Source of the DNA: Candidatus Doudnabacteria bacterium
Lineage (GTDB): Bacteria > Patescibacteriota > Doudnabacteria > UBA920
Length of the DNA stretch: 25,368 nt
Assembly: GCA_023245895.1 (NCBI GenBank)
Contig: JAHFJJ010000001.1
Location: 71,621-96,988, forward strand
Direction of reading: 5' to 3'
Part shown: positions 5,316-25,368 of the stretch, one piece after another
Layout of the letters: each line of letters begins with the position of its first letter
Numbering within the stretch: the stretch's first letter is position 1
Translations under genes and position numbers: made by a program
The notes under the pieces: generated by a model
The model's input: the letters and a program-made list of their open reading frames with translations, nothing else
Databases searched by the model: none
Told to the model about the DNA's origin: nothing

Positions 5316-5316
5316 A

Positions 5317-5949: not shown

Positions 5950-5959
5950 ATAATTTAGG

Positions 5960-7219
5960 TTAAAATTGTATTAAAAACTTAGGGTGCTTTGCCATCATTT
6001 CCTCAAACCTTTCCTTAGTATACTCTTCTATAGGCAAAATTGTGTCTTGGCCTCTGTCTAAAATTACGTTGAATAATTTTTCCTGGACGCCGTTTTTCGT
6101 GTTTTCCATTAAAGAGCGGGTTGTTTCCCATGTCTGCCAAATTTGCCGGCCAATGACAGCGTGGAAAGTAAAACCGTTGACAATAAGGCGGTTAAAATCT
6201 TCAAACACAAAATCTCCCTGCTTAATCCCAAAAAGAACAACTTCCCCTCCCCTGCGCGTGGCATACAGGCAATTATTTACAGAGGAATTAAAACCGGCCA
6301 TTTCAAAACTAATGTCCACGCCCACGCCGTTGGTAATTTTTTTAATTTCGTCGGTGAGGGATGTGTCATGGATGTAGGGCAGGGCCTTGCCCTGCTTGTT
6401 GGGCAGGCCGGGGGCCTGCACTACATTATACAACGGGATGACATAATCTATTCCCAACTTCTTCGCCATATCCTGCGTAACCGGATTCGGGTCCACTCCT
6501 ATTATAGAGGAAGCGCCCATGCCTTTTAAAACAATGGTTAAAAACATGCCGATTGGGCCTAACCCAAATATGGCGACAGATTTTCCTTTAACATCCACTT
6601 TGCTTGCCGCGTGGACCGCGTTGCCAAACGGTTCCTGCATGGCCGCGACTTCGGGACGGATTTTGGAAGTGTCGGTCTTCCAGACAATATGGCTTGGAAC
6701 TTTTGCAAATTCCGCGAACCCGCCGTCATGGGAAATGCCTAATATCTTTTCATTGGTGCAGACTTCTTTTTGCCCACGCAAACACTGGTAGCACTTATTG
6801 CAAACCACGTGGGACTCGCAAGCCGCGAAGTCCCCGGGCTTTAAATTTTTTACTGCTGATCCGACTTTAATAATTTCGCCAAAAAATTCGTGGCCAATTA
6901 TGCGGTATGTTTTACTTGCTGAAACTGCGAGTGCGGCCGAAGCAGTCCCGTCTTGTTTCAAGATTGCTTCGCCTCCTGCACTCCTCGCAATTTCATCATC
7001 TTTATCTATGCTCCCCAAAATGACATCCCTAAAAGCCTGCCTGTTCCAAATGCCGCGGTCAGTCCCGCAAATGCCGGCGTAGTGGACTTTCATAATTACA
7101 TAATTGGCGTCACCAGGATTATTTTTTTCATCCAAAACCGGCTCGGGAATATTTACCAATTCAAACCCGTGCGATGTTTCCCAATCATATTTAGATTTAT
7201 CAAACACCAATGCTTTCAT
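5960..7219 (-). CDS. tdh: Zn-dependent medium-chain dehydrogenase, L-threonine 3-dehydrogenase-like
   Basis: 419 aa, with an MKAL start. It has the catalytic-Zn motif GICGTD and GHEFFGEI, the structural-Zn motif CESHVVCNKCYQC...C, the GLGPIG NAD motif and EPFGNAVHA. It is adjacent to kbl, as in tdh-kbl operons. It carries two insertions of roughly 35 aa and roughly 15 aa relative to E. coli Tdh. Confidence 0.72.
   Translation of the reverse strand: MKALVFDKSKYDWETSHGFELVNIPEPVLDEKNNPGDANYVIMKVHYAGICGTDRGIWNRQAFRDVILGSIDKDDEIARSAGGEAILKQDGTASAALAVSASKTYRIIGHEFFGEIIKVGSAVKNLKPGDFAACESHVVCNKCYQCLRGQKEVCTNEKILGISHDGGFAEFAKVPSHIVWKTDTSKIRPEVAAMQEPFGNAVHAASKVDVKGKSVAIFGLGPIGMFLTIVLKGMGASSIIGVDPNPVTQDMAKKLGIDYVIPLYNVVQAPGLPNKQGKALPYIHDTSLTDEIKKITNGVGVDISFEMAGFNSSVNNCLYATRRGGEVVLFGIKQGDFVFEDFNRLIVNGFTFHAVIGRQIWQTWETTRSLMENTKNGVQEKLFNVILDRGQDTILPIEEYTKERFEEMMAKHPKFLIQF
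6373..6425. repeat. nested GC-rich palindromic element inserted in-frame in the tdh-like gene
   Basis: The outer inverted repeat is tgtagggcagg / cctgcactaca. It encloses two 7-bp stem hairpins (gcagggc-ctt-gccctgc and gcaggcc-ggg-ggcctgc). It encodes VQAPGLPNKQGKALPY, which is absent from E. coli Tdh. Confidence 0.5.
6926..6989. repeat. second nested GC-rich palindromic element inserted in-frame in the tdh-like gene
   Basis: The outer pair is tgcgagtgc / gcactcctcgca and the inner pair is ggccgaagcag / ttgcttcgcc. The central palindrome is cttgtttcaag. The element encodes part of the roughly 35-aa insertion between the CGTD and GHE motifs. Confidence 0.5.
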
Positions 7220-7230
7220 AAATCTTTTAA

Positions 7231-7280
7231 ATCTTGTTCAATAATGGTCAATCTTGTCAATTAATCTGCTCTTGTCAAAA
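7231..7280. promoter_or_regulatory. three direct repeats of (a)tcttgt(t)caa spaced about 20 bp apart in the divergent tdh / small-ORF intergenic region
   Basis: The copies are atcttgttcaa (7231), atcttgtcaa (7251) and ctcttgtcaaaa (7269). The third overlaps the -35 of the plus-strand promoter. Confidence 0.3.
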
Positions 7281-7300
7281 ATCAGCGCTTTCATTATAAT
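7272..7300 (+). promoter_or_regulatory. sigma70-type promoter (TTGTCA-17 nt-TATAAT) for the small plus-strand gene
   Basis: -35 TTGTCA at 7272-7277, an exact 17-nt spacer, and a perfect -10 TATAAT at 7295-7300. AGGAGG follows at 7323-7328 and the ATG is at 7333. Confidence 0.6.
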
Positions 7301-7332
7301 TTGTGTGGTTAGTATGTTTAGAAGGAGGGGAT

Positions 7333-7659
7333 ATGTTTCGAAAAATTCTGCTGCTATTTCAGCACCAGCCCAAGAGAAAGGTGCTTTACCACGACCTTTT
7401 GTGCCAATATTGGCCAACAAAGATCAAGCACAGGACAAACCCTGTTACTGTGTTCGTCATTGGGCACGACGGGCGGATGCGGTCAATTCCATGCGGACTG
7501 GATCCCGGCCGCAACTTTTATAACCTTGTAAAAGAAGTGTTGGCCTACGAAGGCGTTGACTGTGAGAGAACACCCCTTGGTCATTGGCAGCTCGTCGATG
7601 TCATCACAGATAAACCCGGAGACGACATTGTCGTTTTACAAAGAGGAAAGGCGGCCTAA
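7333..7659 (+). CDS. small Cys-containing hypothetical protein (108 aa)
   Basis: It has a canonical promoter, an SD and an ATG. It is the only plus-strand gene among minus-strand genes here. A rho-independent terminator follows it. It contains five Cys (CQYW, PCGLD, DCERT). Confidence 0.6.
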   Translation: MFRKILLLFQHQPKRKVLYHDLLCQYWPTKIKHRTNPVTVFVIGHDGRMRSIPCGLDPGRNFYNLVKEVLAYEGVDCERTPLGHWQLVDVITDKPGDDIVVLQRGKAA

Positions 7660-7719
7660 GAATGGAACACTTGTTTTTGGGCAGTTTGTTGGAGATTCTT
7701 TCCGACGAACTGCCCTGCC

Positions 7720-7742
7720 CCCCCATCTTGATGGGTTTTTTA
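7720..7742 (+). terminator. rho-independent terminator for the small plus-strand gene
   Basis: The stem cccatc/gatggg (7722-7735) is followed by TTTTTTT (7736-7742). Confidence 0.6.
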
Positions 7743-7757
7743 TTTGTCAAAATACTT

Positions 7758-9572
7758 TTACTCAACTGTAACGCTCTTAGCCAAATTCCTTGGTCTATCG
7801 ACATCCCGGCCTAATGCTACTGATACATGATAGGCAAATAACTGGAGCGGGATGGTATTTAAAAGCGGTTCAAGCAGTTCCATAGTTTTTGGCAAATAAA
7901 TAATTTCATCAGCAACCTCTTTTGCCTCTTCATCGCCTTGTGTCGCGATAATTAAAGTTCTGGCCCCGCGGGCGCGGACTTCCTGGATGCTACTTTTCAT
8001 TTTTTCATATAACTGGTTTTTGGTCAAAATAGCCACCACCGGTACGTCTTTGCTTACTAACGCAAGCGGCCCGTGCTTTAGCGCGCCGCCAGCCAAGCCT
8101 TCGGCGTGGATGTAGGAAATTTCCTCAAGCTTCAAAGCGCCTTCCAAAGCCACGGGGTAATTTACGCCCCTGCCAATGAATAAAATATTTTTGTAATCTT
8201 TATAGATGTTGGCAATTTTTTTAATTTCTTCGTTCTGCTTTAAAATTTCATTCATCTTTTCGCTAATTTCCAAAAGCGATTGCAACATCCTCTGTCCTGT
8301 GGCCAGTGAGGTATGCTTAAGGCGTCCAAATTGTAAAGCGTACAATAGTAGAACCGCTGTCATGTTTGTATAGGCTTTAGTAGATGCCACCGCAAGCTCC
8401 GGGCCGGCGTGGATGTAAGTGCCGGCGCCGGTCTCGCGCGCAATGGTTGAGCCCACAACATTTACAATTCCCCTAACCTGCCCGCCCTTTCTTTTGGCTT
8501 CGCGCGCGGCCATTAGCGTGTCGGCGGTTTCTCCGGATTGCGAAATTACAAAAACCAAAGTGTCTTTGTTTACAATCGGGTCGCGGTAGCGGAATTCGGA
8601 TGAAAAATCCACTTCGGTGGGGATGTTCGCCAAACGTTCAAAAGCGTATTTGCCAATAAGCCCGGCATGCCTGGCCGTGCCTTCGGCAATTATCATTATC
8701 CTTTTGACTTTCCGCATTTCTTCTTCGGTCAAATTAAGCCCGCCCATTTTTGCCGTGCCTTCTTCCATGTCTATCCTGCCCCTAAGCGCGTCTTCAAAAA
8801 CTTCTTTCTGGTCAAAAATTTCCTTGAGCATAAAATTCTCAAAACCGCCTTTTTGCGCCTTAGCCTGGTCCCAGTCTATTTCCGTAATATTTTTGCTGAT
8901 GACTTCATTACGCAAGTTAAAAATTTTCAATTCAGAATTGATGGATGCAATCTCACCGTCATCTAAAAAGGTCACGCGCTTGGTAAACGGCAGCATTGGC
9001 GTTACATCGGACGCGATATAAAATTCATTTTCACCAATACCCACGGCCAAAGGACTGCCTAAACGCGCGGCGACCAGCTGGTGCGGATGGTCTGCGTGCA
9101 TAACTACAAGCCCGTATGTACCCCGAATTCCGGGTAAGGCATCTTTTACCGCCTGCACTAAATCGCCTTTATAATTTTGGTAAATCCATTTGGCCAAAAC
9201 CTCCGTGTCGGTTTGCGATTCGTAATTTTTGTCTTGGATTTTTTCTTTCAACTCCCGGTAATTTTCAATTATGCCATTATGGACAATAGCCATTCTGCCA
9301 TCCACAATATGCGGATGTGCATTAAATTCTGTCACTCCCCCGTGGGTTGCCCAGCGTGTGTGCGCGACGCCAATTGTTCCCGGCAACTTCTTGCCTTCCA
9401 GTTTTTGCGATAGCTTGTCCACCTTGCCCACTTCCCTAACGCGATCGATTTTCCCATTATCCAAAACCGCCACGCCAGCGCTGTCGTAGCCTCTATATTC
9501 CAAATCGCGCAATCCTTGTAAAAGGATAGGCAAAACCTGTTTATTTCCAACGTATCCGACTATACCGCACAT
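7758..9572 (-). CDS. glmS: glutamine--fructose-6-phosphate aminotransferase (isomerising)
   Basis: 604 aa. It has the N-terminal MCGIVGYVG Ntn-amidotransferase start with the nucleophile Cys2, two SIS domains, and the C-terminal ...VTVE tail. It is full length relative to E. coli GlmS (609 aa). Confidence 0.97.
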   Translation of the reverse strand: MCGIVGYVGNKQVLPILLQGLRDLEYRGYDSAGVAVLDNGKIDRVREVGKVDKLSQKLEGKKLPGTIGVAHTRWATHGGVTEFNAHPHIVDGRMAIVHNGIIENYRELKEKIQDKNYESQTDTEVLAKWIYQNYKGDLVQAVKDALPGIRGTYGLVVMHADHPHQLVAARLGSPLAVGIGENEFYIASDVTPMLPFTKRVTFLDDGEIASINSELKIFNLRNEVISKNITEIDWDQAKAQKGGFENFMLKEIFDQKEVFEDALRGRIDMEEGTAKMGGLNLTEEEMRKVKRIMIIAEGTARHAGLIGKYAFERLANIPTEVDFSSEFRYRDPIVNKDTLVFVISQSGETADTLMAAREAKRKGGQVRGIVNVVGSTIARETGAGTYIHAGPELAVASTKAYTNMTAVLLLYALQFGRLKHTSLATGQRMLQSLLEISEKMNEILKQNEEIKKIANIYKDYKNILFIGRGVNYPVALEGALKLEEISYIHAEGLAGGALKHGPLALVSKDVPVVAILTKNQLYEKMKSSIQEVRARGARTLIIATQGDEEAKEVADEIIYLPKTMELLEPLLNTIPLQLFAYHVSVALGRDVDRPRNLAKSVTVE

Positions 9573-12629: not shown

Positions 12630-15600
12630 GTGAGAAACAATTCTAAAATAAAACACAATTTCAGAGCCGGGACTTTTAAAGTTTCATATAGTCCGTTTTT
12701 TAGATTAGGCCTGTTTTTAATGGTCTTTGTTATGCTGTTTCATATCAATCCACAGCAGGCCCAAGCAGCCAATTACACGTTTAGCCAATCCAGCTGGAGC
12801 GGTGGAACAACATCAAGCACAATGGTCCACCCGACTAACGAAACCGGCTGGACGCAGTATTCCACCAGTACCAATATTACCGCGGGCTCAACTATTACTC
12901 TCAATTCAAGCTTTGGAGCAGGCGGCTGGTACTCGACCGGAGGTACTTGGACTTACAGGAAAAAGATAACCATAGACCACACTAAAGTCAGCGGATCGAG
13001 CGCGCTGACTAATTTCCCAATGTTGTTTAACGTAACAGATTCGGATTTAAAATACACAGGCAGCGGAGGCGGGGTCGGCACTACATCTGGAAATGATATT
13101 TTATTTACTTCGTCAGACGGAACAACGCTTTTGAATTATGAAATAGAAAGCTACGCTTCCACTACCGGAGCTACCGCCGCCTGGGTTAATATTCCTTCCC
13201 TCTCCCCGACAACCGACACGACTATTTATATGTACTACGGTAATGCTTCAGCGGCGGCGGAAAGCGCCGGCAACATTACCGGCACTTGGGATTCCAATTT
13301 TAAAGGCGTATGGCACTTTCCCAGCACCACGACCTTGGGCGCTAATGATTCAACCAGCAACGCCAATAATGGATCTTCAACAACTACTACCGCCTCTACC
13401 GGCAAGATTGCTGGAAGCGCGAGTTTTAACGGCTCGGCTTTTATTTCCGTCGGCACCGGCTCGTCTTTGAATATTACTTCCCAGCCCGTTACTGTTTCAT
13501 CCTGGGTCAAACCAAGCAGCCAGCCTCCGACTTTCCAGATGATCTTTGATAAAGATGCTTCATACGCTTTTTTTCTCGACAGCAACAGCCCCCCAACAAA
13601 TTCTCTGGGGTTTAGGTCTAACATTAACGGGTCGATTGTTTACGCAAACAATAATATTATAACCACAGGCAGCTGGCAGCATGTAGCGGCAGTTTACGCT
13701 TCAAACACAGTTTCTTTTTACGTTAACGGCAGCCTGGCTTCAACCACAGCACTTTCAAACGCCTTTTCGTCTAACTCAAACGCGGCGGAAATTGGAAGGA
13801 GATTTACTAACGAACAGTTCTTTAATGGTGATATGGATGAAGTTAGGGTATCCTCTGCCGCCCGTTCCGCCGACTGGATTGCCACGGAATACGCCAACCA
13901 AAATTCGCCGTCAACTTTTCTTTCCGAAGCCTCGGCCGTAACTAATGTAAAAATGCTGGTTTCTTCGCCTTACGATTCCGGCAGTTCTAATAATATTTTA
14001 AACCAGGTTACCTGGACTGAAGATTCAACTTTGCCGGCCAATACTTCCGTGACCCTGGCCCTGCGCACGGGCAGTTCCACAACCACACTGGCCGCGGCAA
14101 GCTGGACCAATATTGCCACCAGCACGCCTTCCACCCTGACTTCCAACTGCAGCAAGGCTTCCGCGACAATTACCTGCAGCGCCGGCGCCATTGCCTCTTC
14201 TCTCAAAGACGGGTCCGGCGACGAATGGTTCCAGTACGCCGTAATTCTTAACAGCAGCGACGGAGTCTACACGCCCACAATTAGCGCGGTATCCGTGCAG
14301 TATGTGGTCAATGGCCCGCCGGATTTTAATTCCAACTACCCAACCGCCAGCGCCGGCGGAGTCTATGCTTACCAAAACGCGACCACCACAGACTCAAGTT
14401 TTGGCAAGGTAATAATCCAATACAGCGTTAGGGATACGGACTCAACCTCGGGCAACAGCACGCCCGGATATGTTACGCCTTCTTTCCAGTACAACATTGG
14501 CGGCAGCTGGACCAGCATAACTTCGGGCTACCTGGCATCTGGCGATTTGAACAACAAAGCCGTAAGCGAGTCCAGCTACACGACTTACCAGGCGACCTGG
14601 GACGCGAAAAGCCAAATCCCTACCAATTACCTGGCGACCGCGCAGGTAAGGGTGACTGTGAATGATAATGAGCTTGCGGGCAACACTGCCACACAAGCCT
14701 CAGCTAACTTTACCTTAGATACAACAAACCCTTCGGCCAGTATTCGTTTAGATGCCAGCAGCAACATAATTTATTCCACCTCAACCGACAGCAGCATTGT
14801 TTCATACTTGCTATCCAACAATTCCACCGGCACGCCCGATTCCTTAAATGCCATAAGCGGCATTTGGCAGTCTGCAAGCAGCACTTCGGTATCAACCTCT
14901 ACTGCCTGGACTTTTGCTTCAACCACTTATCCCACAGTCTACTTCCAGGCCCGCGACGCATACAATAACGGCGCCAGTACTACCGCGGTAGCCCCTTACG
15001 CGCCGACCAACATGGACATAAAAGATATTAGCAATACGGCTACAGGCGTGTACAGGGAATTTATTTCCTGGGGGGTTTATTCCGCAACTTCAAGCGCGGC
15101 CTTTTCCAAATATGAAATTTACCGTTCCACGGATGCCAGCAGCTATTCCCTGCTTAGCACAATTATTGACTCCTCCCTTAATTACTACGCCGACTCGGCG
15201 GTGGCCACTAGCAGCACTTATTACTACAAAATAAGAACGGTAGATACCGACACTGACAACTCCCCCTATTCTTCGGTTGTCAGCGATAAACCGGACGGCC
15301 AGGGCGGGACAGACATAACTGCCCCAACCATAAGCTCGGTAACCGTGGCGCAAACCCAGTCAACCTGGGCAACCATTACCTGGACCACGGATGAGCTGTC
15401 CAACTCCACGGTAGGATATTCCACGACTGCGGGCAGCTGGACATCAAGCCAGTCCTCAACCTCATTTTTGCTTAGCCATTCGGTGACAGTCTCCGGGCTT
15501 TTGCCAAATACCACCTACTACTTTAGGGTCCAGTCCTCGGACATTGTGGGCAACACGGCTACTGACAACAACGGCGGCAACGGATACAGTTTTACAACTG

Positions 15601-17591
15601 CCGGCGGTCCGACTATTTCCAATACCAGCGTTTCCGCGCAGGCCACCGGCGCTTCCATAACCTGGAATACGGACCGCAGTTCTGACTCCTACGTATATTA
15701 CTCCACCAATTCCAACCTTAGCTCGCCGCAAGTAGCCGGTAACGCGGCTTTGGTGTCAACAAGTTCAACTCCTTCAGTATTCCAGCATAGAGTCGACCTA
15801 ACAGGCTTGTCCGCGGCCACAACTTATTATTTCTACGTTAAATCCACGGACGGCAACAGCAATTCTTCCACGGACACCAATAACGGCAGTTACTATTCTT
15901 TCCGAACCGTGCTCGATACCCAGGCGCCGGTTATTTCGGGAATTTCAACGCCGGTAATTTCATCCACGGCCGCGGTAGTAGTATGGACTACGGACGAGCC
16001 GGCTACTTCAAGAGTTTCCCTGGGCACGGCTACCGGCAGCTACTCAACCAGCACTCCCGTTGACTCCACCTTAACCATAACCCATGTGGTCGCGCTCTCC
16101 GGTTTAACCGCCTCAACCAAATATTATTTCGTGGCCACTTCCCAGGACCAGGCGGGTAACTCCACCACCTCGGCCGAAAACACTTTTACTTCCGCCGATG
16201 CCAACGATATAATTTATATAGGCAGCGGGGGCGCGAGTGCCGGAGGCACAACCTCCGATATTACCCCGCCTGTCATTAGCAGCATTAAAACAGGAACGAC
16301 CACAGCCTTTAGCGTGACGGTTAGCTTCTCTACCAACGAATCGGCTGTTGGAATTGTTCAGTACGGGACTAGCGACAAATACGGCCAGTCAGGCGCTGAA
16401 TCAAGCTTTACTTCCACCCACAACATTAGCCTTACCGGCCTGCGCATGGGAACCAAATATCATTTTAAAGTTGTCGCCCTGGACAAAGCCGGCAACGAGG
16501 CTGATTCTGTAGACGGAACCTTTGAAACACAATTCTTGAGCGATGACTTAAGCAGCATAAATATCGATGACTTATACCAGTACCAGGAAGAAATTGAAAA
16601 CCAAATTGAATCAATCCTTCCCTCTATAGTCCCGCCGTTTATCGGCAAAGTAGCCATAAGTAACGTAAGCCAGGATTCAGCCGACATTTCCTGGCAGACT
16701 AACCTGAAAGCCTACTCCTCGGTTCAGTACGCTTCTGAAAACGACTACAATAAAGACAGCGAAAAGCCGTACCCAAGCGAAAGCGGCGACATTACCACCA
16801 AAGCCACCAACCATAGCCTAACTTTAACCGGGCTGACTCCCAACACCGTTTACCATTTTCGCGTTAAAGCCTACACCCTGCCCAAAGCCTCAAGCTCAAG
16901 CAAAGATATTTCTTTTACCACCAAGGCCGAGGATATTAAAGCCCACATTGCCGAGGTAAAAATCGATTCCTTCCGGGTGGTTTGGAGTACTGCAGACGCT
17001 TCAGATGCGGTAGTGGAATATAAAAATTTGAGCAACGGGCAGGTTAACCGTAAAGTAGATGAGCAAAAAAAGATTTTCCATGAAGTCACAATAGACAAAT
17101 TACCGTCCGGAACGACTTTTTTGGTAAAAGTTTCCAGCATCAACAATAAAGGCAACTTAACTGAAAATAAAGTGCCGCTTAAGGTAACTACCGGCACGGA
17201 CAACAACGCCCCCACAATTTCAGGACTGAAAATAGAAAGCACTTTGGTGCCGGGTAAACAAGACAAAGTCAGCACTTTAATCCGCTGGAACACGGATGAA
17301 CCGGCCAGTTCGGCTGTCTACTACGAAGAAGGCAGCGGCGCCCCTACCAACCAACACCTGGCCAATAAGGCTGTAGGCGACCAAAATGCTTTTGTAACCG
17401 ACCATGTGGTAGTGCTCGGCTCGCTGAAAGCCGGAGCTATTTACCGCATCCAGGTTGAATCCAGCGACTCGGCCGGCAACCTTACTGCGCCGACTATAAA
17501 AACCATTGTCGTGCCAAGACAAAGCCAATCGGTAACTGATATTATCTTTAAAAACTTTGAAGATTCCTTTAAGTTCCTAAACACGAAATAA
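12630..17591 (+). CDS. giant secreted/cell-surface protein: signal peptide, DUF2341-like domain, LamG/ConA-like lectin domain, Ig-like region, then about seven FN3/PAP-N-like repeats
   Basis: 1653 aa with a GTG start. It has a Sec-type signal (K/R-rich n-region, LGLFLMVFVMLF, AQA|AN). Residues 108-215 resemble DUF2341 (WTYRKKITIDHTKV...TTIYMYYGN). Residues 245-430 resemble LamG (WQHVAAVY...SFYVNGSL...FNGDMDEVRVSSAARSADWI). It has repeated ITWTTDE..S.V.Y....YYFRV.S.D..GN modules, an S/T/N-rich composition and many N-x-S/T sequons. Minus-strand ORFs inside it are spurious. Confidence 0.9.
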   Translation: MRNNSKIKHNFRAGTFKVSYSPFFRLGLFLMVFVMLFHINPQQAQAANYTFSQSSWSGGTTSSTMVHPTNETGWTQYSTSTNITAGSTITLNSSFGAGGWYSTGGTWTYRKKITIDHTKVSGSSALTNFPMLFNVTDSDLKYTGSGGGVGTTSGNDILFTSSDGTTLLNYEIESYASTTGATAAWVNIPSLSPTTDTTIYMYYGNASAAAESAGNITGTWDSNFKGVWHFPSTTTLGANDSTSNANNGSSTTTTASTGKIAGSASFNGSAFISVGTGSSLNITSQPVTVSSWVKPSSQPPTFQMIFDKDASYAFFLDSNSPPTNSLGFRSNINGSIVYANNNIITTGSWQHVAAVYASNTVSFYVNGSLASTTALSNAFSSNSNAAEIGRRFTNEQFFNGDMDEVRVSSAARSADWIATEYANQNSPSTFLSEASAVTNVKMLVSSPYDSGSSNNILNQVTWTEDSTLPANTSVTLALRTGSSTTTLAAASWTNIATSTPSTLTSNCSKASATITCSAGAIASSLKDGSGDEWFQYAVILNSSDGVYTPTISAVSVQYVVNGPPDFNSNYPTASAGGVYAYQNATTTDSSFGKVIIQYSVRDTDSTSGNSTPGYVTPSFQYNIGGSWTSITSGYLASGDLNNKAVSESSYTTYQATWDAKSQIPTNYLATAQVRVTVNDNELAGNTATQASANFTLDTTNPSASIRLDASSNIIYSTSTDSSIVSYLLSNNSTGTPDSLNAISGIWQSASSTSVSTSTAWTFASTTYPTVYFQARDAYNNGASTTAVAPYAPTNMDIKDISNTATGVYREFISWGVYSATSSAAFSKYEIYRSTDASSYSLLSTIIDSSLNYYADSAVATSSTYYYKIRTVDTDTDNSPYSSVVSDKPDGQGGTDITAPTISSVTVAQTQSTWATITWTTDELSNSTVGYSTTAGSWTSSQSSTSFLLSHSVTVSGLLPNTTYYFRVQSSDIVGNTATDNNGGNGYSFTTAGGPTISNTSVSAQATGASITWNTDRSSDSYVYYSTNSNLSSPQVAGNAALVSTSSTPSVFQHRVDLTGLSAATTYYFYVKSTDGNSNSSTDTNNGSYYSFRTVLDTQAPVISGISTPVISSTAAVVVWTTDEPATSRVSLGTATGSYSTSTPVDSTLTITHVVALSGLTASTKYYFVATSQDQAGNSTTSAENTFTSADANDIIYIGSGGASAGGTTSDITPPVISSIKTGTTTAFSVTVSFSTNESAVGIVQYGTSDKYGQSGAESSFTSTHNISLTGLRMGTKYHFKVVALDKAGNEADSVDGTFETQFLSDDLSSINIDDLYQYQEEIENQIESILPSIVPPFIGKVAISNVSQDSADISWQTNLKAYSSVQYASENDYNKDSEKPYPSESGDITTKATNHSLTLTGLTPNTVYHFRVKAYTLPKASSSSKDISFTTKAEDIKAHIAEVKIDSFRVVWSTADASDAVVEYKNLSNGQVNRKVDEQKKIFHEVTIDKLPSGTTFLVKVSSINNKGNLTENKVPLKVTTGTDNNAPTISGLKIESTLVPGKQDKVSTLIRWNTDEPASSAVYYEEGSGAPTNQHLANKAVGDQNAFVTDHVVVLGSLKAGAIYRIQVESSDSAGNLTAPTIKTIVVPRQSQSVTDIIFKNFEDSFKFLNTK

Positions 17592-17603
17592 AGAACCCTC
17601 CAA

Positions 17604-17637
17604 ATTCCCCCCGCCGATGGCAGGGGGAATTTTTTTG
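17604..17637 (+). terminator. rho-independent terminator of the giant gene
   Basis: The stem attccccccgcc/ggcagggggaat is followed by TTTTTTT. Confidence 0.7.
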
Positions 17638-17691: not shown

Positions 17692-18126
17692 ATGAAACAA
17701 ATAAAAATTTTGATGGTGGACGAAAATGAAATTATGCGGTTTTACTTCCGCGACTCTTTCTGGCTGCATAGCGAACGGGACGAGTATGAATTGAGGTTTG
17801 CCAGTGATTTTGTCCAGGCACAGCAGATATTGCGGGAACCGGAAACATTTTTTGACATTATATTCCTGGATTTAGTTTTGCATATTACCCACAAAAACCG
17901 CTTGGTTCTGGACCCGGAAGCGGGCCTAAAGCTAATTGCCCAAATCCGCTCCATGCCTAAATTTAAAAATACCAAAATAGTAGTATTTTCTTCCAAGCAA
18001 TATTTCCATTTGTGGAAAAAAGCCAAAAAGCTGGGCGCTAACTTTTTCCTTAAAAGCGAAGAATACCTGCCCCGTTACCTGGTAAAATGGGTAGAAAAAA
18101 TCTTTAAAGAGAAATCCGCGCAATGA
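17692..18126 (+). CDS. stand-alone CheY-like receiver-domain protein (single-domain response regulator)
   Basis: 144 aa with the receiver signature positions: an acidic pair (VDEN), the phospho-acceptor Asp (IIFLDLVL), S (VVFSS) and K (FFLKS). It has no output domain. Its stop overlaps the ATPase start (ATGA). Confidence 0.75.
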   Translation: MKQIKILMVDENEIMRFYFRDSFWLHSERDEYELRFASDFVQAQQILREPETFFDIIFLDLVLHITHKNRLVLDPEAGLKLIAQIRSMPKFKNTKIVVFSSKQYFHLWKKAKKLGANFFLKSEEYLPRYLVKWVEKIFKEKSAQ

Positions 18127-19433
18127 ACACAATAATAGAATTAAAGCACGTCAATTTTTGGTACGACCGCGGCAAACCCACGGAAATGCAGGCTTTGCAC
18201 GACATTAATTTACAAATTGGCCAGGGAGAATATGTGGCTTTTTTCGGCCCTTCCGGCAGCGGCAAAACCACCCTGCTGTATTTGCTTTCAGGAACGGAAA
18301 TGTCCCAGGAAGGCGAAGTTATGGTCAACGGCAAAGACATTAGCAAACTGTCCAAAAGAGAAATGGCCATTTACCGGCAAATCGGGGTGGGCATGGTTTT
18401 CCAGCAGTTCAACCTTATTCCCAATTTAACCATACTGGAGAATGTCGGCTTGCCCATGGCTTTTTTAGGCGTTGGCGAAGACAAAAGAATAAAAGAAGCC
18501 AAGCTGCTGCTGGAACGGCTTAACCTGTCTGCCCTTGCCAAACGTTTTCCATATGAACTTTCCGGCGGACAGCAACAGAGAGTCGGCATAGCGCGCGCGC
18601 TGGCCAACAATGCGCCGATTATTGTCGCCGATGAGCCTATTGGCAACCTGGATTCCACCAACGCCAACAACGTGCTGGATTTTTTAAAGGAACTTTGTGA
18701 AAAGGACGGCAAAACTGTGGTTATGGTTACCCACGAAGCCTGGAGCTTAAGAGACGCCAAAAAAATCTTTTACCTGAAAGACGGCGTGGTGGAAAAAGTT
18801 GAAACCAACCACGCCAAACCGGCAACGCAAATCCTGGCGGAACAGCTATATAAACAAACAGCTCCCAAGCGGGCGCAGGAGTCCAAAGAACGGGCGGTGG
18901 CCAGCACCCTGGCCAATGTGCTTTTTCGCGGTTTTTCGGCTGAAGAAAACATGCGTTTCAGCGACTTTCTAACACAGCGCTTAACGGGACAAGTGGACCA
19001 GGTACAATTCCTAGAATTGCTCTATAAGCCTTTCCGCGAGGGCGGCGGAGGTTTGTGGAAAAAACGGGCGCTGGAAACCTCGCGCTACGTTGAAGGGATT
19101 ATCCAGGAGCATATGGACGTGGAAGGAATATGCCTGGAGCTGGAAAAAAATCCAACGGCTCCCCTGCTTCACGAAATTGGCAGTTTAATGGAATGGCTTT
19201 TAGACAGGAATAAAATCCGGCTGGATCAGCTACAGGAAAGCCGCTTCCGCCAAGTTACCACAGAAGTCCTCCGCAACGCTATTAAGCTGGAAGCCTTTAA
19301 AGAAGCGCTGTATTTGCCAAAGTCAAAACTGGGCGTGGGGCTGTCGCATAGGACAACTGAAAGAATTTATGAAAAATTTAAACTTGCTTTGGGTAATTTT
19401 GAACTTGAACCGCTCTCGCCTGAAAAAGCCTAA
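18123..19433 (+). CDS. MacB/LolD-type ABC transporter ATP-binding protein with a roughly 200-aa C-terminal extension of unknown function
   Basis: It has Walker A (GPSGSGKTT), the ABC signature (LSGGQQQRVGIARAL), Walker B (IIVADEPIGNLD) and an H-loop (VTHE). Residues from about 230 to 436 have no recognisable motif. Confidence 0.88.
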   Translation: MNTIIELKHVNFWYDRGKPTEMQALHDINLQIGQGEYVAFFGPSGSGKTTLLYLLSGTEMSQEGEVMVNGKDISKLSKREMAIYRQIGVGMVFQQFNLIPNLTILENVGLPMAFLGVGEDKRIKEAKLLLERLNLSALAKRFPYELSGGQQQRVGIARALANNAPIIVADEPIGNLDSTNANNVLDFLKELCEKDGKTVVMVTHEAWSLRDAKKIFYLKDGVVEKVETNHAKPATQILAEQLYKQTAPKRAQESKERAVASTLANVLFRGFSAEENMRFSDFLTQRLTGQVDQVQFLELLYKPFREGGGGLWKKRALETSRYVEGIIQEHMDVEGICLELEKNPTAPLLHEIGSLMEWLLDRNKIRLDQLQESRFRQVTTEVLRNAIKLEAFKEALYLPKSKLGVGLSHRTTERIYEKFKLALGNFELEPLSPEKA

Positions 19434-19437
19434 TAAT

Positions 19438-19598
19438 GGGTCTTCTGCCGAATGTCATTTTGACTGCAATTTCAAAATTTCGGCCATTCGACCCAAAAAA
19501 TTTATCCGCTTAACTAAAGTTAAACATCAAAATTTATTTGTGCCGACTGTCTCGAAATTTTGAAATTTCGTTACAAAAGCACATTCGGCAGAAGACCC
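19438..19598. repeat. 161-bp near-perfect inverted-repeat element (MITE-like or structured RNA) filling the ATPase-permease intergenic region
   Basis: The terminal 18-bp inverted repeat gggtcttctgccgaatgt (19438-19455) / acattcggcagaagaccc (19581-19598) is perfect. The inner 15-bp pair is aatttcaaaatttcg / cgaaattttgaaatt. The tip hairpin is ttaac-taaa-gttaa. The element ends 5 nt before the permease ATG. Confidence 0.6.
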
Positions 19599-19603
19599 AT
19601 ACA

Positions 19604-20809
19604 ATGAACAACCACCTAAGCCCTTTTGACCTTATAAAACTCTCCACCAGAGTCTTTTTCGTCAAGCCAACACGAACGCTTTTGACTATTTTAGGGACTT
19701 CTGTCGGCATTAGCGCGGTGGTATTTTTAGTTTCCCTGGGCTACGGCTTCCAGTACCTGCTTTTAGGCAAACTGGTTACAACCGAAGATTCTTTAATTAC
19801 GCTGGCGGCTTCCTACCCCAGTGAAAGCGGAGCGGTAATTTATCCCAAAACAATAGAGGAAATGGGCAAGCTGCCCGGGGCGTCGGAAACCAGCAGCATG
19901 GCTGAATTTTCGGGCGAAATTGACTACGAAAAATTAAGCGGGCTAATCTTGGTTAGAGAAGTAGAACCCAGCTACTTTCGGCTTTCCGGCTTTAACCCGG
20001 ACATTGGACAGGCGCCATCGGAAAAAAAGCCGGGCTTAGTGCTTACTAACCAGGCTTTGCGCCTGCTTAACTTAGCAGATGACCAAAATATCCTCGGCAA
20101 ACAAGCCGGTATAAAAGTTTATTATCAAAGCCAGGACCAAAGCCAGCCCAGCGAAGCAAACGCCTCTTCGCCCCTGCCCATTGTCGGCATAATCACCGAC
20201 GAGAACGAGCCTCCGGTAGTCTACGTTCTGGCTTCTTCCATTTCACAAGCGCCGCCTTTTTTTAAGGAGCTCTTACTTAAGGCTGACAAAATCGACAATG
20301 TAGAACCCCTTAGGGAAAAATTAAGCGACAAAGGATTTTTAATTTCTGCCAAGCTTGACTTGGTCACACAGGCCAGAAAAATTTTAAACGCGATTACCAT
20401 TGTGCTGGCTGTGTTCGGGATTACCGCCCTGGTGGTTTCCGCCATTGGCATGTTTAACACTATGATCGTGGGCTTTTTGGAAAGGATTTATGAGGTCGGG
20501 GTCATGAAGTCTTTAGGCGCCACCGATAGCGACGTGCGGAACCTATTTTTGATGGAATCCCTGCTCATGGGCCTTTGCGGCGGCATAGCGGGCGTAGCCA
20601 TTGGCATTGGGGCGGGCAAACTGCTAAATTTTGGCCTCAATGTGCTTGCCTCCCGCCTAGGAGGCAAAGCTTTAGAGCTCTTTATTACCCCTTGGTGGTT
20701 TATAGGTTTAATCTTGGCAACCTCGGCTTCCATTGGCCTGATTGCCGGTTTTTGGCCGGCCCACCGCGCTTCGACGCTTTCTCCCAAAGAAGCATTTTTG
20801 AGGAAATAA
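19604..20809 (+). CDS. ABC transporter permease, MacB/FtsX family
   Basis: It has an N-terminal TM (LLTILGTSVGISAVVFLVSLGYGF), a large periplasmic domain, and a C-terminal FtsX-type four-helix region (MKSLGATDSDVRNLFLMESLLMGLCGGIAGV...). The ATG at 19604 is preferred over the ORF-track start at 19538, which lies inside the inverted-repeat element. Confidence 0.85.
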   Translation: MNNHLSPFDLIKLSTRVFFVKPTRTLLTILGTSVGISAVVFLVSLGYGFQYLLLGKLVTTEDSLITLAASYPSESGAVIYPKTIEEMGKLPGASETSSMAEFSGEIDYEKLSGLILVREVEPSYFRLSGFNPDIGQAPSEKKPGLVLTNQALRLLNLADDQNILGKQAGIKVYYQSQDQSQPSEANASSPLPIVGIITDENEPPVVYVLASSISQAPPFFKELLLKADKIDNVEPLREKLSDKGFLISAKLDLVTQARKILNAITIVLAVFGITALVVSAIGMFNTMIVGFLERIYEVGVMKSLGATDSDVRNLFLMESLLMGLCGGIAGVAIGIGAGKLLNFGLNVLASRLGGKALELFITPWWFIGLILATSASIGLIAGFWPAHRASTLSPKEAFLRK

Positions 20810-20968: not shown

Positions 20969-20976
20969 ATCATATA

Positions 20977-21094
20977 GCGGGCAGCCGCCTACTTTTGCGC
21001 ATACATGCGTATGACTATCATTGGCCCGTGCGTGTTTTACTACTGAGTTCGGGATGGGATCAGGTAGGACCACGCTGGAAATGCCACCCTCGTC
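20977..21094 (-). rRNA. rrf: 5S ribosomal RNA
   Basis: The minus strand reads ...GUGGUCCUACCUGAUCCCAUCCCGAACUCAGUAGUAAAACACGCA..., matching the conserved 5S core (GGUCCCACCUGACCCCAUGCCGAACUCAGAAGUGAAAC). Terminal helix I pairs GAGGGUGGC with GCUGCCCGC. Confidence 0.8.
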
Positions 21095-21717: not shown

Positions 21718-22569
21718 CACATATTCTTCTGTCACCAGAAGTGCAGACTATATCTTCATCCTATCTTATACCTTAGGCTCCTGGGCCATAGTATTTTTTT
21801 ATGATAGGTGTCGGCGTATTATAGAAATAGTAGAAAGTATAAAGTTGAAAGTTTAAAGTAACTGCAATTGCAGTCCTTTTCACTTTCTACTTTTAACTTT
21901 TAACTACCTTCCATCTCCTCTTTCGAGTCAGTCGTTACGGGGTCAAACCTAAAATCTTAAATAATTCAAGTCCGGTTTTCTTTTTCCGAGTTGCGTAGTT
22001 ATTATTTTGAATTATTGTTATACAGCTTATAATTTTCCTGAGTTCAGATTGCGTAAAATTAGCAATCTTTTTCCCTTCCAGAATTCCGGCTGCTTTATAC
22101 AAAGCCGCAGCTTGTTGCTTCTTAAAACGTATAAATGGAATTAAATCTTTAAGAATGTTTTTAATTTGAGTCACCCCGTTTATACGAAGTTCGCTCATTC
22201 CGTCATTTCTGCGGGATAAGTACCCAATGCCTAAAACTTTCTTAATCCAGAAAAGTTCTGCTTCATGGCGGCTATCCTGATAAAAACAGATAGTGCACAT
22301 AAAACGAACTTTTTTCTTTCCATCTTTGCGCTTTTTGATTTGCAACATTAAGCTGCCGTCTCCGTCTAAAAAGCCGGCAATATAAGCTAAATCAATTTTA
22401 GATCGACTTCCCACGGTATTGTCTTAATATTCTTGGTCCTCAAGTAAATTGTACCATAACTGAAGAACCGTTACAATTATGGTTATCAACGGATGCAAAA
22501 TATATTAAGATTTCACCGTTATTAGCCGAATTTTCAAGGCAGATTACTCTGCCAAGTAGCAAACCCTTT
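21718..22569 (-). other. intron (group I-like, 852 nt) inserted in the 23S sarcin-ricin loop (E. coli U2656/A2657 equivalent)
   Basis: The 5' exon ends ...GCGCAUCCCUAGU (22570). The 3' exon starts ACGAGAGGACCGGGAU (21717). Joined, they restore the universal SRL CCUAGUACGAGAGGACC closed by the AUCCC/GGGAU stem. The intron starts with A after an exonic U and ends in G. Confidence 0.7.
21935..22414 (-). CDS. LAGLIDADG homing endonuclease (single-motif) encoded in the SRL intron
   Basis: It has the LAYIAGFLDGDGS motif near its N-terminus. It is 159 aa with a GTG start, and lies entirely within the intron. Confidence 0.85.
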   Translation of the reverse strand: MGSRSKIDLAYIAGFLDGDGSLMLQIKKRKDGKKKVRFMCTICFYQDSRHEAELFWIKKVLGIGYLSRRNDGMSELRINGVTQIKNILKDLIPFIRFKKQQAAALYKAAGILEGKKIANFTQSELRKIISCITIIQNNNYATRKKKTGLELFKILGLTP

Positions 22570-22699
22570 ACTAGGGATGCGCCCAATCAAGTTTCGAACA
22601 CCCACAGCAGATAAGGACCAAACTGTCTCACGACGTTTTGAACCCAGCTCGCGTACCACTTTAATATGCGAACAGCATAACCCTTGGGAGCTTCTTCAC

Positions 22700-22738
<39 letters not shown>

Positions 22739-23308
22739 TCTCGTCGATGTGGACTCTTGGAGAGGATCAGCCTGTTATCCCTAGAGTAACTTTTATCCGT
22801 TGGGCTTTGCGTCTTCCACTCGAACGCATCGGATCACTAACTTCCACTTTCGTGCCTGCGCGGGTCGCCGCCCTTGCAGTCAAGCATGCTTATGCGTTTG
22901 CACTATCAGCATGATTTCCATCCATGCCTAGCATACCTTAATAAACGCCTCCGTTACCATTTAGGAGGCAACCGCCCCAGTTAAACTACCCACGAGCCAC
23001 TGTCCCAAAGTAGGTTAGACTTTGGTTAGAATTAATATTTTTACAGAGTGGTATTTCACCTTTTGCCTCCATTTGAGCTGGCGCCCAAACTTCAAAGGCT
23101 CCCACCTAGGCTAAACAATAAAAGCATTAATTCAATGACACGCTATAGTAAAGCTTCATAGGGTCTTTCCGTCTTGCTGCGGGTAGACGGCATCTTTACC
23201 GCCACTGTAAGTTCATCGGAATGTTCGTTAAGACAGTTCTCTGCTCGTTATGCCATTCGTGCGGGTCGCAACTTACGCGACAAGGAATTTCGCTACCATA
23301 GGACAGTT

Positions 23309-24044
23309 CATAATGTTAGCTTCATGTTTCCATGAAGTTCAGACTATATCATTCCATCAATTGGATGGATTCGGCGTTTAGTCGTTGAGGGTTTTTACTA
23401 AATGATTCTTTAAAATTTGTTAAATTATGCTTTCGAGTTCTACCTTTTCCTTCATTTAAGTCCTCACGAAGTTTTACTATTTCTAGCAACCCTTCCTGAT
23501 TTAAATGTTGGCTTGCAAAAACTAATCTTGCAATTTTAGAGAATAACGAATAGTTTCTTTTTTTACTAGCGGACAAGAAACCGAACCGGTCAAAGAAAGG
23601 AATTATTTTTTCTTTGAGTGCTGTATGATTTTGGACAATATATTGATGCACGCCATCTTTCCTATGGTCAATGCGACCACAGCCTAAATGATGCTTCAAC
23701 AAAGCAAGTACGGTAATGTCTTTTTGAGCAACATTAAACGTTAATATTACTTGCCATAATACTTTACTGTCGTTTCGTTTACGAAGGGAAACATTAAAGC
23801 TTCCTTCTCCGTCTACAAAACCTGCAAAGTAATTTCCAATTTCAACAGGAATTTGCTTTAACCAATTTTGATCCATAAAGTTTCCTTCTGAATCTTTTAG
23901 TAAATCTTCCCTGCGGATTGACTGTATCTTGTAAATTTTTACTGTCAATTTAATGACGAGTATTACAAGCTTTAAGCACATCAAAGTCCTTTGTGTGCAC
24001 AGTTATTCCCGCAAATAGCCAAATTTTATAACTACAACATGTTC
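23309..24044 (-). other. group I-like intron (736 nt) in 23S helix 69 at the L1917-equivalent site
   Basis: The 5' exon ends ...GGCAGUAACUAU (U at 24045). The 3' exon starts AACUGUCCUAUGGUAGCGAAAUUCC (23308). Joined, they give the H69 loop UAACUAUAAC. The intron ends in G. The junction can slide by 3-4 nt because of the local repeat gaac...gaac. Confidence 0.65.
23349..23984 (-). CDS. LAGLIDADG homing endonuclease (single-motif) encoded in the L1917 intron
   Basis: It has the NYFAGFVDGEGSF motif. The likely true start is the internal Met at 23876 (MDQNWLKQIPVEIGNYFAGF...). The longer N-terminal extension probably reads through intron core sequence. Confidence 0.85.
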   Translation of the reverse strand: MMCLKLVILVIKLTVKIYKIQSIRREDLLKDSEGNFMDQNWLKQIPVEIGNYFAGFVDGEGSFNVSLRKRNDSKVLWQVILTFNVAQKDITVLALLKHHLGCGRIDHRKDGVHQYIVQNHTALKEKIIPFFDRFGFLSASKKRNYSLFSKIARLVFASQHLNQEGLLEIVKLREDLNEGKGRTRKHNLTNFKESFSKNPQRLNAESIQLME

Positions 24045-24814
24045 ATAGTTACTGCCGGCGTTCATCAGGGCTTGGCCGATCGGCTTGCGCCAACCGGTTT
24101 AACCTTCTGACACTGGCCAGGCATCAGCCCGTATACATCAGCTTGCGCTTTAGCACGGACCTAAGTTTTTGGTAAACAGTCGGAGGAGATCTTTCGCTGC
24201 GGCCCTGTACCATTCATTCGCTTACGCGAATTCAGGTGCAGGGCAAGGTATATACCGAAGGTACACCTGCTTTTTTGCCGAGTTCCTTAACGAACATTGG
24301 TCCGGACGCCTTGGGATTCTCTCCCCATCCACCTGTGTCGGTTTACGGTACGAGCACTTTATAACATGACTTCGACGCTTTTCTTGACACCTTGATTCAC
24401 ACTAATCTCCGTTGCCAGATTTTTTTATGCTTTCGAGATTACAATCGCATCAACCATCTCTTGCGAGGTAAGCTGATGTAATATAGGAACTCCGGATTTA
24501 CCTAAAGTTCCACCCTACGAGCACAACAACGCCAATAGTCAGATGACGCTAATGTTATCATGATGCGTCCCGCCTAAGATAATTATAAAGCGGTTATGGA
24601 ATATCAACCATATTTTCCATCGGGTGAACCCCTTGGGGCCCACTCTTAGGATCGACTAACCCAGGGACGACGATCGTTGCCCTGGAAACCTTGGATATTC
24701 GGCGAAGAGGATTCTCACCTCTATATATATTACTTATTCCAACATTCTTACTTGTACACTGTCCACGGCCGCTTACGCATACCGCTTCAGCCTGTGTACA
24801 ACACTCCTCTACCA

Positions 24815-24927
24815 CTTATGCGAAGCATAAGAACAATTAACTTTTAACAATTAACAATTGACCGGCTGCAGACTGCAGTAGTTAATCGTTAATCGTTAAT
24901 TGTTACCAGTTTTTATGCTTCGCATAA
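24815..24927 (-). repeat. 113-nt hairpin expansion segment in 23S (replacing the short helix after the GTPase-associated centre), built of tandem 7-10-nt repeats
   Basis: The base palindromes are cttatgcgaagcataag and tttatgcttcgcataaa. Tandem aacaattaac copies pair with tandem gttaatc copies around the central palindrome ctgcagactgcag. E. coli has only GCGGCAGCGACGCUUAUGCGUUGUUGGGUAG at this position. Confidence 0.5.
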
Positions 24928-25010
24928 ATCCACGTCTTCGGCACCTAGCTTAGCCCCTATATATTGTCGGCGCAGGATCGCTTGACCAGTGAGCTGTTAC
25001 GCTTTCTTTA

Positions 25011-25047
<37 letters not shown>

Positions 25048-25368
25048 GGGCAATCCCACATCCTTTGCACTATAGCTAGGATTTGGGGGCCTTAGACGGT
25101 GGTGTGGATTCTTCTCCATTTGTCTCGTGAAGCTTAGACCTCACGGACTGACTGCCAATTTCTTGACCTTTAGAATTCGGAGTTTGGTTGGAGCCTACCG
25201 CTTGCGCAGCAGGTTTCCATTCAGTGCTCTACCTCTAAAGGGAACAATTGACGCTAGCCCTAAAGCTATTTCGAGGAGAACCAGCTATCACCCGGTTCGA
25301 TTGGAATTTCTCCCCTACGCACAGCTCATCCCCTATTTTTGCAGCAATAGTGGGTTCGGACCTCCCGT

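Follow-up and report, generated by a model that had tools for sequence, protein, structure and literature searches.

The 25,368-nucleotide (nt) stretch of a Candidatus Doudnabacteria bacterium analysed here (the window; contig JAHFJJ010000001.1, positions 71,621 to 96,988) encodes, one after the other on its plus strand, a giant secreted surface protein, a stand-alone receiver, a long ATP-binding cassette (ABC) ATPase and a type VII ABC permease. These four components very probably constitute one functional unit, in which the ABC module probably serves the giant surface protein. More tentatively, with a chance that we place a little below even, the module would be a dedicated type VII ABC mechanotransducer working with that protein. 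Its components are of known kinds (a type VII ABC system and a receiver), and their combination is unlike MacAB, FtsEX, LolCDE and BceAB on the features that define those systems. Type VII ABC systems, such as MacB, LolCDE and FtsEX, relay the motion of a cytoplasmic ATPase to extracytoplasmic partners. Patescibacteria (the candidate phyla radiation) make up a large part of bacterial diversity, and most of them are thought to live attached to other microbes; to our knowledge, how this attachment is achieved and controlled is largely unknown. For giant surface proteins of Patescibacteria, an adhesin role has been put forward repeatedly, with no machinery assigned to it (PMC11809585, PMC13059738); in papers on this group, FtsEX is mentioned as a transporter, and giant proteins with FN3/DUF2341 appear as putative adhesins. 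No published description of the four-gene module was found in the literature searched, the coverage of which was incomplete, so this is absence of evidence only. The genes are as follows (ORF, open reading frame; aa, amino acids; TM, transmembrane segment):

12630-17591, plus strand: giant secreted surface protein, 1653 aa, with recognisable Pfam domains
17692-18126, plus strand: receiver, 144 aa (ORF table and sequence)
18123-18126, plus strand: ATGA stop/start overlap, the receiver TGA lying on the ATPase ATG (sequence and ORF coordinates)
18123-19433, plus strand: long ABC ATPase, 436 aa
19604-20809, plus strand: type VII ABC permease, 401 aa, with TM1, a MacB-like extracytoplasmic core domain of approx. 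200 aa, and TM2-4 (FtsX domain)

A first-pass annotation of the window had placed these genes correctly, the receiver/ATPase overlap included, as the ORF table and the sequence confirm, and had suggested that receiver, ATPase, permease and giant protein act as a functional unit. The conservation of the neighbourhood supports this suggestion. Long-ATPase loci were confirmed in approx. 130 species-level genomes, nearly all of them from Patescibacteria; the loci compared comprise 80 from species-representative genomes, fetched through the distal part of the ATPase (130 confirmed), together with the loci of individual homologues, and all positional counts are lower bounds owing to crude ORF calling. 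All-against-all clustering of the ORFs from 85 loci recovered only four recurrent gene families, namely the permease (85 loci), the long ATPase (84), the receiver (66) and the giant FN3-array protein (56); the next family was found in 14. The permease lies directly 3' of the ATPase in 76 of 77 loci, and the receiver directly 5' of it in at least 54 of 76, with three more loci in which the receiver lies past the permease. An orthologue of the giant protein occurs in 50 of the 67 loci that include at least 2.5 kb of upstream sequence: in the order giant-receiver-ATPase (25 loci) or giant-ATPase (4), in divergent orientation (5), downstream (1) or elsewhere within 10 kb (15), with none in the locus in 17. 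The order ATPase-permease-receiver-giant is also found (L053, L063 and L065). Since the linkage is kept despite these changes in order and orientation, function is favoured over inherited synteny as its explanation. A reciprocal scan, in which metagenome contigs were searched with a motif from the C-terminal tail of the giant protein (S[IV]xD[VI]I[FLV][KNR]NF), yielded more than 363 relatives, of which 75 loci with at least 700 nt of downstream sequence were kept. The module follows immediately downstream in 41 of the 75 (31 with the receiver, nine without it and one cut by the contig end), and one further locus shows a divergent arrangement. The linkage of the module to one orthologous giant protein is, in short, strong and not universal.

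Two side observations concern the spread and the content of these loci. Complete giant-receiver-ATPase-permease loci also occur in bins labelled Thermoplasmata archaeon (L031) and Burkholderiales (L037), most likely as mis-binned contigs rather than through transfer. In one sub-clade, an extra multi-pass membrane protein of 630-650 aa, with a carboxypeptidase-regulatory-like motif recognised by eye, is encoded between the giant gene and the receiver (L045, 2717-4627; L073, 845-2737; L074, 3661-5613; also L091, L093, L127, L131 and L137) and may be a fifth component.

The giant protein consists of an N-terminal signal/anchor segment, a DUF2341 and LamG head, an array of many FN3/Pur_ac_phosph_N repeats and a conserved C-terminal tail. 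Its parts differ in conservation:

13089-13883, plus strand: variable head with DUF2341 (aa 154-219) and LamG (aa 278-418) by Pfam, lineage-specific and outside the conserved core
13953-17588, plus strand: conserved core, aa ~442-1653, with orthologue coverage increasing from 59% to 94% along it and co-terminal alignments
17514-17588, plus strand: C-terminal amphipathic tail peptide (PRQSQSVTDIIFKNFEDSFKFLNTK), with the family consensus ESIxDVIFKNFExTFxFL from 46 and 42 aligned orthologue C-termini

Orthologues are collinear with the window protein from aa ~442 to its last residue and share the conserved C-terminal 1200 aa; because the alignments are both collinear and co-terminal, these proteins are orthologues and not merely FN3-rich. 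The first-pass annotation had linked the module to DUF2341 proteins. However, the DUF2341/LamG region (aa 100-440) is common to only 8-11% of 50 giant orthologues, so DUF2341 was rejected as the defining feature, and the partner is the orthologous giant FN3-array protein, with or without such a head. Only one hydrophobic segment (aa ~18-41), plus a weak internal one, exceeds the threshold in the giant protein; its signal peptide, by reading, ends in AQA, a signal peptidase I-like site, and no lipobox, LPXTG motif or C-terminal TM or hydrophobic anchor was seen in it. The tail, whose longer consensus is ...RTIITPxQxESIxDVIFKNFExTFxFL..., is a candidate docking or anchoring signal, and the conserved C-terminal end to which it belongs would be the most parsimonious partner of the ABC pair.

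The permease has the make-up of a type VII permease, that is, four TM, of which the first two flank a large extracytoplasmic domain, and an FtsX domain at the C-terminus. Its start as listed (TTG at 19538, giving a 423-aa ORF) is probably wrong; ATG at 19604, giving 401 aa, is preferred because the called genes on identical public contigs and all homologues start there. Pfam places MacB_PCD (PF12704) at aa 47-263 and FtsX (PF02687) at aa 292-416 (423-aa numbering), and four hydrophobic segments lie at 24-58, 253-293, 313-341 and 359-386. The closest solved chains are YtrF (E 1e-25), MacB, Spr0695 and LolC/E, and among the homologues DevA-type and LolC/E matches also occur. The ATPase divides into three parts (NBD, nucleotide-binding domain; pLDDT, the per-residue confidence of the AlphaFold2 model):

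18123-18806, plus strand: ABC NBD (aa 1-228) of the LolD/MacB/FtsE/MJ0796 class (PF00005, E 4.5e-35; pLDDT >90)
18807-18878, plus strand: disordered, poorly conserved linker (aa ~229-252; pLDDT <50 for aa 231-252)
18879-19400, plus strand: all-helical C-domain (aa 253-426) of two tandem four-helix units, each with a Gly-x-Gly hairpin (GGGGLW and LGVGLS)

Residues 1-228 of the ATPase align end to end with the NBDs of MJ0796, MacB, LolD and FtsE (best PDB match 1f3o, E 4e-54). Walker A, the Q-loop, the LSGGQ signature, Walker B and the H-loop are complete, and G42-K48, Q94, L146-Q150, D170-E171 and H204 are invariant across 121 aligned ATPase sequences; judged by these motifs, the ATPase looks catalytically competent. 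The NBD belongs to no named orthologue group within its class because all NCBIfam equivalog scores fall below their cut-offs: FtsE, the best match, scores 195.8 (cut-off 264.85) and LolD 190.4 (307.75). The permease behaves likewise, with 43.1 against a cut-off of 255 for FtsX and 50 against 362.45 for lolCE. More than 120 full-length homologues of the ATPase (420-460 aa, 50-90% identity, 95-100% coverage) were found, the named ones only from Patescibacteria (Wolfe-, Yonath-, Doudna- and Magasanikbacteria, and Paceibacterota).

Some of these homologues bear the database name 'Macrolide export ATP-binding/permease protein MacB', and the first-pass annotation spoke of a MacB-type ABC exporter. 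The permease is indeed of MacB/YtrF type according to Pfam and PDB matches, and 'exporter' is only a class label. An ordinary MacB- or Bce-like efflux or antimicrobial-peptide resistance pump, with the receiver as a two-component remnant and the giant gene adjacent by chance, would fit these names as well as the fact that Bce-type type VII transporters work with two-component systems. Such a pump is nonetheless very unlikely: the giant protein stays linked to the module in different phylum-level groups and after gene rearrangements; the surroundings hold no conserved gene for a membrane fusion protein, a kinase or a DNA-binding regulator; the receiver lacks an output domain; and drug pumps are not known to carry the additional C-domain. 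A MacA-like adaptor gene is missing from the window, and the clustering of 85 loci returned no conserved fifth family. Members of the MacB/type VII superfamily (MacAB-TolC, Spr0694-0695 of S. pneumoniae and YtrEF of B. subtilis) share the NBD class and the four-TM MacB_PCD/FtsX permease with the module. In contrast, the module has its NBD and permease on separate polypeptides, lacks a conserved MacA-like adaptor, carries an extra helical C-domain of 175 aa on its ATPase, and comes with a coupled receiver and a linked giant surface protein. In BceAB-BceRS, too, the function of a type VII ABC transporter is tied to two-component signalling proteins. However, BceB has ten TM and signals to a kinase and a DNA-binding regulator, whereas the permease described here has four TM and is accompanied by a stand-alone receiver, neither of the two Bce partners being conserved.

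The amphipathic tail, which is not a TM helix, brings in another possibility, namely that the module is a Lol-like extractor that pulls the uncleaved signal anchor or the amphipathic tail of the giant protein from the membrane so that the protein is released or transferred, or that exports a lipid or glycan for attachment to the wall. The linkage data (85-locus clustering, positional counts and reciprocal scan) apply to this explanation equally, LolCDE sets a precedent for extraction from the outer leaflet of a membrane, and LolC/E and DevA-type matches are found among the homologues. We regard it as improbable, since the giant protein showed no lipobox, the AQA end of its signal peptide resembles a signal peptidase I site, no glycosyltransferase or lipid-synthesis gene is conserved near the module in the 85 loci, and the LolD and LolCE scores remain far under their cut-offs. 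LolCDE has the same type VII architecture and acts on the membrane-associated part of a secreted protein; the module differs from it in having neither lipobox nor outer membrane, in addition to these scores.

The ATPase also has a C-terminal extension. The first-pass annotation had described approx. 200 mostly helical residues without a known motif after a complete NBD, and both domain searches and AlphaFold2 agree with this description. The model comprises a confident NBD, a disordered linker (aa 231-252) and an all-helical C-domain (aa 253-426); when modelled alone, the C-domain gives eight helices with a pLDDT of 90.3 and a predicted template modelling score (pTM) of 0.79. The C-domain is a four-helix unit duplicated in tandem, with homology between the halves (hhalign probability 95.4%, E 2e-8). 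Across the 121 sequences, G270, E275, G308, G310, W358, G404 and G406 are invariant in the extension. A mundane homologue, which would have spoken against the first-pass interpretation, was sought by sequence, profile and PDB-fold comparison and was not found: residues ~229-436 match nothing in Pfam, NCBIfam or the PDB sequences, whether compared as one sequence or as a profile, and residues 253-426 match no PDB fold, being unlike the C-terminal regulatory domains of the MalK/MetN/ModC type or any other solved fold. The extension is therefore real, conserved, structured and internally duplicated, and has no described relative among the Pfam, NCBIfam and PDB entries compared.

Several other explanations of the extension were tried and rejected. 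It is not an orphan: a word-indexed search with the extension alone returned zero matches, which was a false negative, as full-length and HMMER searches found the family. The null result obtained with this short, divergent query was misleading, given that identical and 90%-identical full-length proteins were present in that very collection. Exhaustive HMMER searching with the extension gave 60 representatives at 50% clustering, and in every full-length match, in proteins of approx. 430 aa, the extension is C-terminal. A frameshift or gene-fusion artefact was rejected because length and architecture are shared by more than 120 homologues. Phosphotransfer by HPt/DHp-like four-helix units was rejected in view of the invariant columns, which hold neither His nor Asp. 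Finally, MRS2-like Pfam matches in 9 of 25 C-domains (23.2 bits against a cut-off of 27) cover one helical stretch only and were taken to be compositional.

The receiver of the window scores 30.0 bits (E 6e-7) against Response_reg (PF00072), the gathering cut-off of which is 30.2, and it has no significant match among PDB sequences; its orthologues at the same position in the locus pass PF00072 and are annotated as Response_reg. It has the canonical receiver residues (the acidic pair D10/E11, the phospho-acceptor D60, S100 and K121) and stands alone, without an output domain. An alignment of 68 non-identical orthologues from related loci shows D or E at position 10 in 67 of them, mostly D at position 11, S or T at position 100 in all 68 and the Lys in 65. 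Because these orthologues align well and keep the acidic pair, the S/T and the Lys, the family is, as far as sequences tell, a genuine but divergent receiver family, with an F-W-x-H-G motif in helix 1 and a lengthened loop past strand 3 as traits of its own. The phospho-acceptor is Asp in 54 of the 68 and Gly in 14. Most receivers with Gly belong to Yonathbacteria-type loci without an adjacent giant gene and keep the DD pair, the Ser and the Lys (such ORFs lie 5' of the ATPase in L021, L027, L029, L034, L036, L039, L042, L044, L047 and L049); they may be pseudo-receivers that act without phosphorylation. Phosphorylation is therefore not obligatory for the role of the receiver everywhere.

The supposed phospho-regulation of the module has accordingly to be qualified: the acceptor is present in the window protein and in most of the family, but it is not general, and no kinase is conserved nearby. 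The first-pass annotation was right that the window holds no histidine kinase, since none was found when its ORFs were examined by Pfam and homology. A conserved histidine kinase partner was rejected, as neither the ORF clustering of 85 loci nor a scan for kinase motifs in 2.1 Mb of related loci recovered a cognate family near the module. The scan returned five kinase-like ORFs; the two checked with Pfam are seven-transmembrane (7TM) kinases approx. 3 kb upstream of the module (L053 and L079). In these two loci (4908-9383 and 5649-9434, respectively), the 7TM histidine kinase, ribosomal protein L25 and an SLT lytic transglycosylase of 470-500 aa precede the module, and the N-terminal part of the L079 transglycosylase looks like a coiled coil, which recalls the partners of FtsEX.

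How the components might work together can be outlined by analogy, although every physical contact among them, as well as the direction of action, is something that we infer. The ATPase-permease pair would be a type VII 'mechanotransmission' device and not a solute pump. On the cytoplasmic side, ATP would be bound and hydrolysed, setting the extracytoplasmic domain of the permease in motion, and this domain might hold, deploy or actuate the giant protein at its conserved C-terminal end, which would lie proximal to the cell. Mechanotransmission to an extracytoplasmic partner is suggested because it is established for MacB, LolCDE and FtsEX. The receiver would tune the ATPase, and the helical C-domain, expected beneath the NBD dimer, would probably be the route; receivers that retain the acceptor Asp might act by phosphorylation, those that have lost it simply by binding. 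FtsEX with EnvC, PcsB, CwlO or RipC serves as the working analogy, being a type VII pair that controls an unanchored extracytoplasmic partner and does not transport a solute. Unlike FtsEX, however, the module has a MacB_PCD and not an FtsX_ECD ectodomain, its FtsE and FtsX scores are below the cut-offs, its partner would be an FN3 array of 1600-3000 aa and not a coiled-coil hydrolase, and its receiver and C-domain have no FtsEX equivalent. The Lap system (LapA, LapBCE and LapD/LapG) offers a purely functional analogy, since there too a giant repetitive adhesin is found beside a dedicated ABC system and a cytoplasmic signal decides on its retention. Lap differs in using a type I secretion ABC exporter, an outer membrane, cyclic di-GMP and a periplasmic protease, and there is no homology beyond the NBD.

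Several observations weigh against a mechanotransducer dedicated to the giant protein. No giant orthologue lies within 10 kb in 17 of the 67 loci, and in the reciprocal scan 33 of the 75 loci had no module within 6 kb downstream (divergent arrangements would lie beyond the flank fetched). In the window itself, a terminator-like hairpin at 17602-17636 parts the giant gene from the module. In addition, some loci keep the motifs of the C-domain without an adjacent receiver, so the C-domain cannot be only a dock for the receiver. To these may be added gene neighbours that point towards a device for envelope growth or division, in which a second, FtsEX-like system would control a peptidoglycan hydrolase or synthase and the giant protein would merely be a co-regulated envelope component. 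Thus, the Wolfebacteria module (L003) is found just upstream of the dcw genes MraZ-RsmH-PBP-Mur, the coiled-coil SLT transglycosylase mentioned above is directly 5' of the ATPase in L053 and L079, a D-Ala-D-Ala ligase (Ddl) gene takes that position in L063 and L065, as do FtsE-FtsX in L069; FtsE is also the best NCBIfam match of the NBD. We nevertheless consider such an envelope device unlikely. Each of these cell-wall neighbours is found in at most 14 of 85 loci, compared with 56 for the giant protein, and the ectodomain and the FtsE score speak against it, as set out above. The module is, moreover, not FtsEX itself because separate bona fide FtsE and FtsX (the latter with FtsX_ECD) coexist with it in the same loci (L003 and L069).

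Two hairpins, both overlooked in the first-pass annotation, lie in the intergenic spacers of the window and may affect how the module is expressed:

17602-17636, plus strand: terminator-like hairpin (AAATTCCCCCC...GGGGGAATTT) with a 14-bp stem, followed by a T-run, in the giant gene/receiver spacer (-20.3 kcal/mol, z -2.5)
19436-19600, plus strand: near-perfect hairpin of 165 nt, formed by inverted repeats with 27-nt outer arms, in the ATPase-permease spacer (dG -65.8 kcal/mol, z -10.7)

The first of these qualifies the description of the receiver as lying directly 3' of the giant gene: the two genes are adjacent (17591 and 17692), but a terminator-like hairpin and T-run stand between them. 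In many relatives, the giant-receiver spacer is only 11-80 nt long or the genes overlap. Given the hairpin here and the short spacers elsewhere, the module may use read-through or a promoter of its own, and the transcriptional organisation of the giant gene and the receiver so differs between lineages. The second hairpin spans its spacer exactly, from 2 nt past the ATPase stop to 3 nt short of the permease ATG; the window contains no other copy of it, and no Rfam family matches it. Because it is absent from a 90%-identical relative (6-nt spacer) and a 73%-identical relative (4-nt overlap), it is a recent, lineage-specific insertion, either an element resembling a miniature inverted-repeat transposable element (MITE-like) or a regulatory palindrome, and it breaks the tight ATPase-permease coupling seen in relatives. 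A 69%-identical relative (L167, 6242-6358) has an unrelated palindromic hairpin of approx. 100 nt at the same junction (dG -46.2 kcal/mol, z -4.2), which suggests either that palindromic elements insert at this junction repeatedly or that selection favours a hairpin there.

The other ORFs of the window encode GAPDH, a nucleotidyltransferase, a GNAT protein, CofD, an aminotransferase, ADH and GlmS, as well as a TrmB-like regulator, a methyltransferase-like protein and LAGLIDADG endonucleases. On the minus strand, 3' of the module, lie the genes for 5S rRNA (20976-21091) and 23S rRNA (22523-25368, truncated by the end of the window). Taken with the names of the homologues, these rRNA genes assign the window to the Patescibacteria. 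One LAGLIDADG ORF (23349-23984, minus strand) is inside the 23S rRNA match and is an intron ORF, and a second (21935-22414) lies in the 23S-5S spacer, which at approx. 1.4 kb is unusually long.

The module provides a concrete and widely conserved candidate machinery, in which an ATPase, a signalling input and a membrane mechanotransducer are genetically tied to a giant protein. It also adds to the known ABC ATPases an accessory domain that is structurally confident, as a predicted structure, and has no known homologue. The output of the stand-alone receiver would be an ABC motor and not transcription. Thus, the vague label of 'adhesin' becomes testable through protein-protein interactions and the regulation of the ATPase. 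A bolder version of this idea, which appears rather unlikely, is that of a Patescibacteria-specific surface machine, in which a type VII motor, gated by the receiver through the helical C-domain, would anchor an FN3 fibre of several thousand residues by its C-terminal tail and mechanically extend, retract or release it. If this were true, such bacteria would possess an ATP-powered, signal-controlled attachment organelle for their episymbiotic lifestyle.

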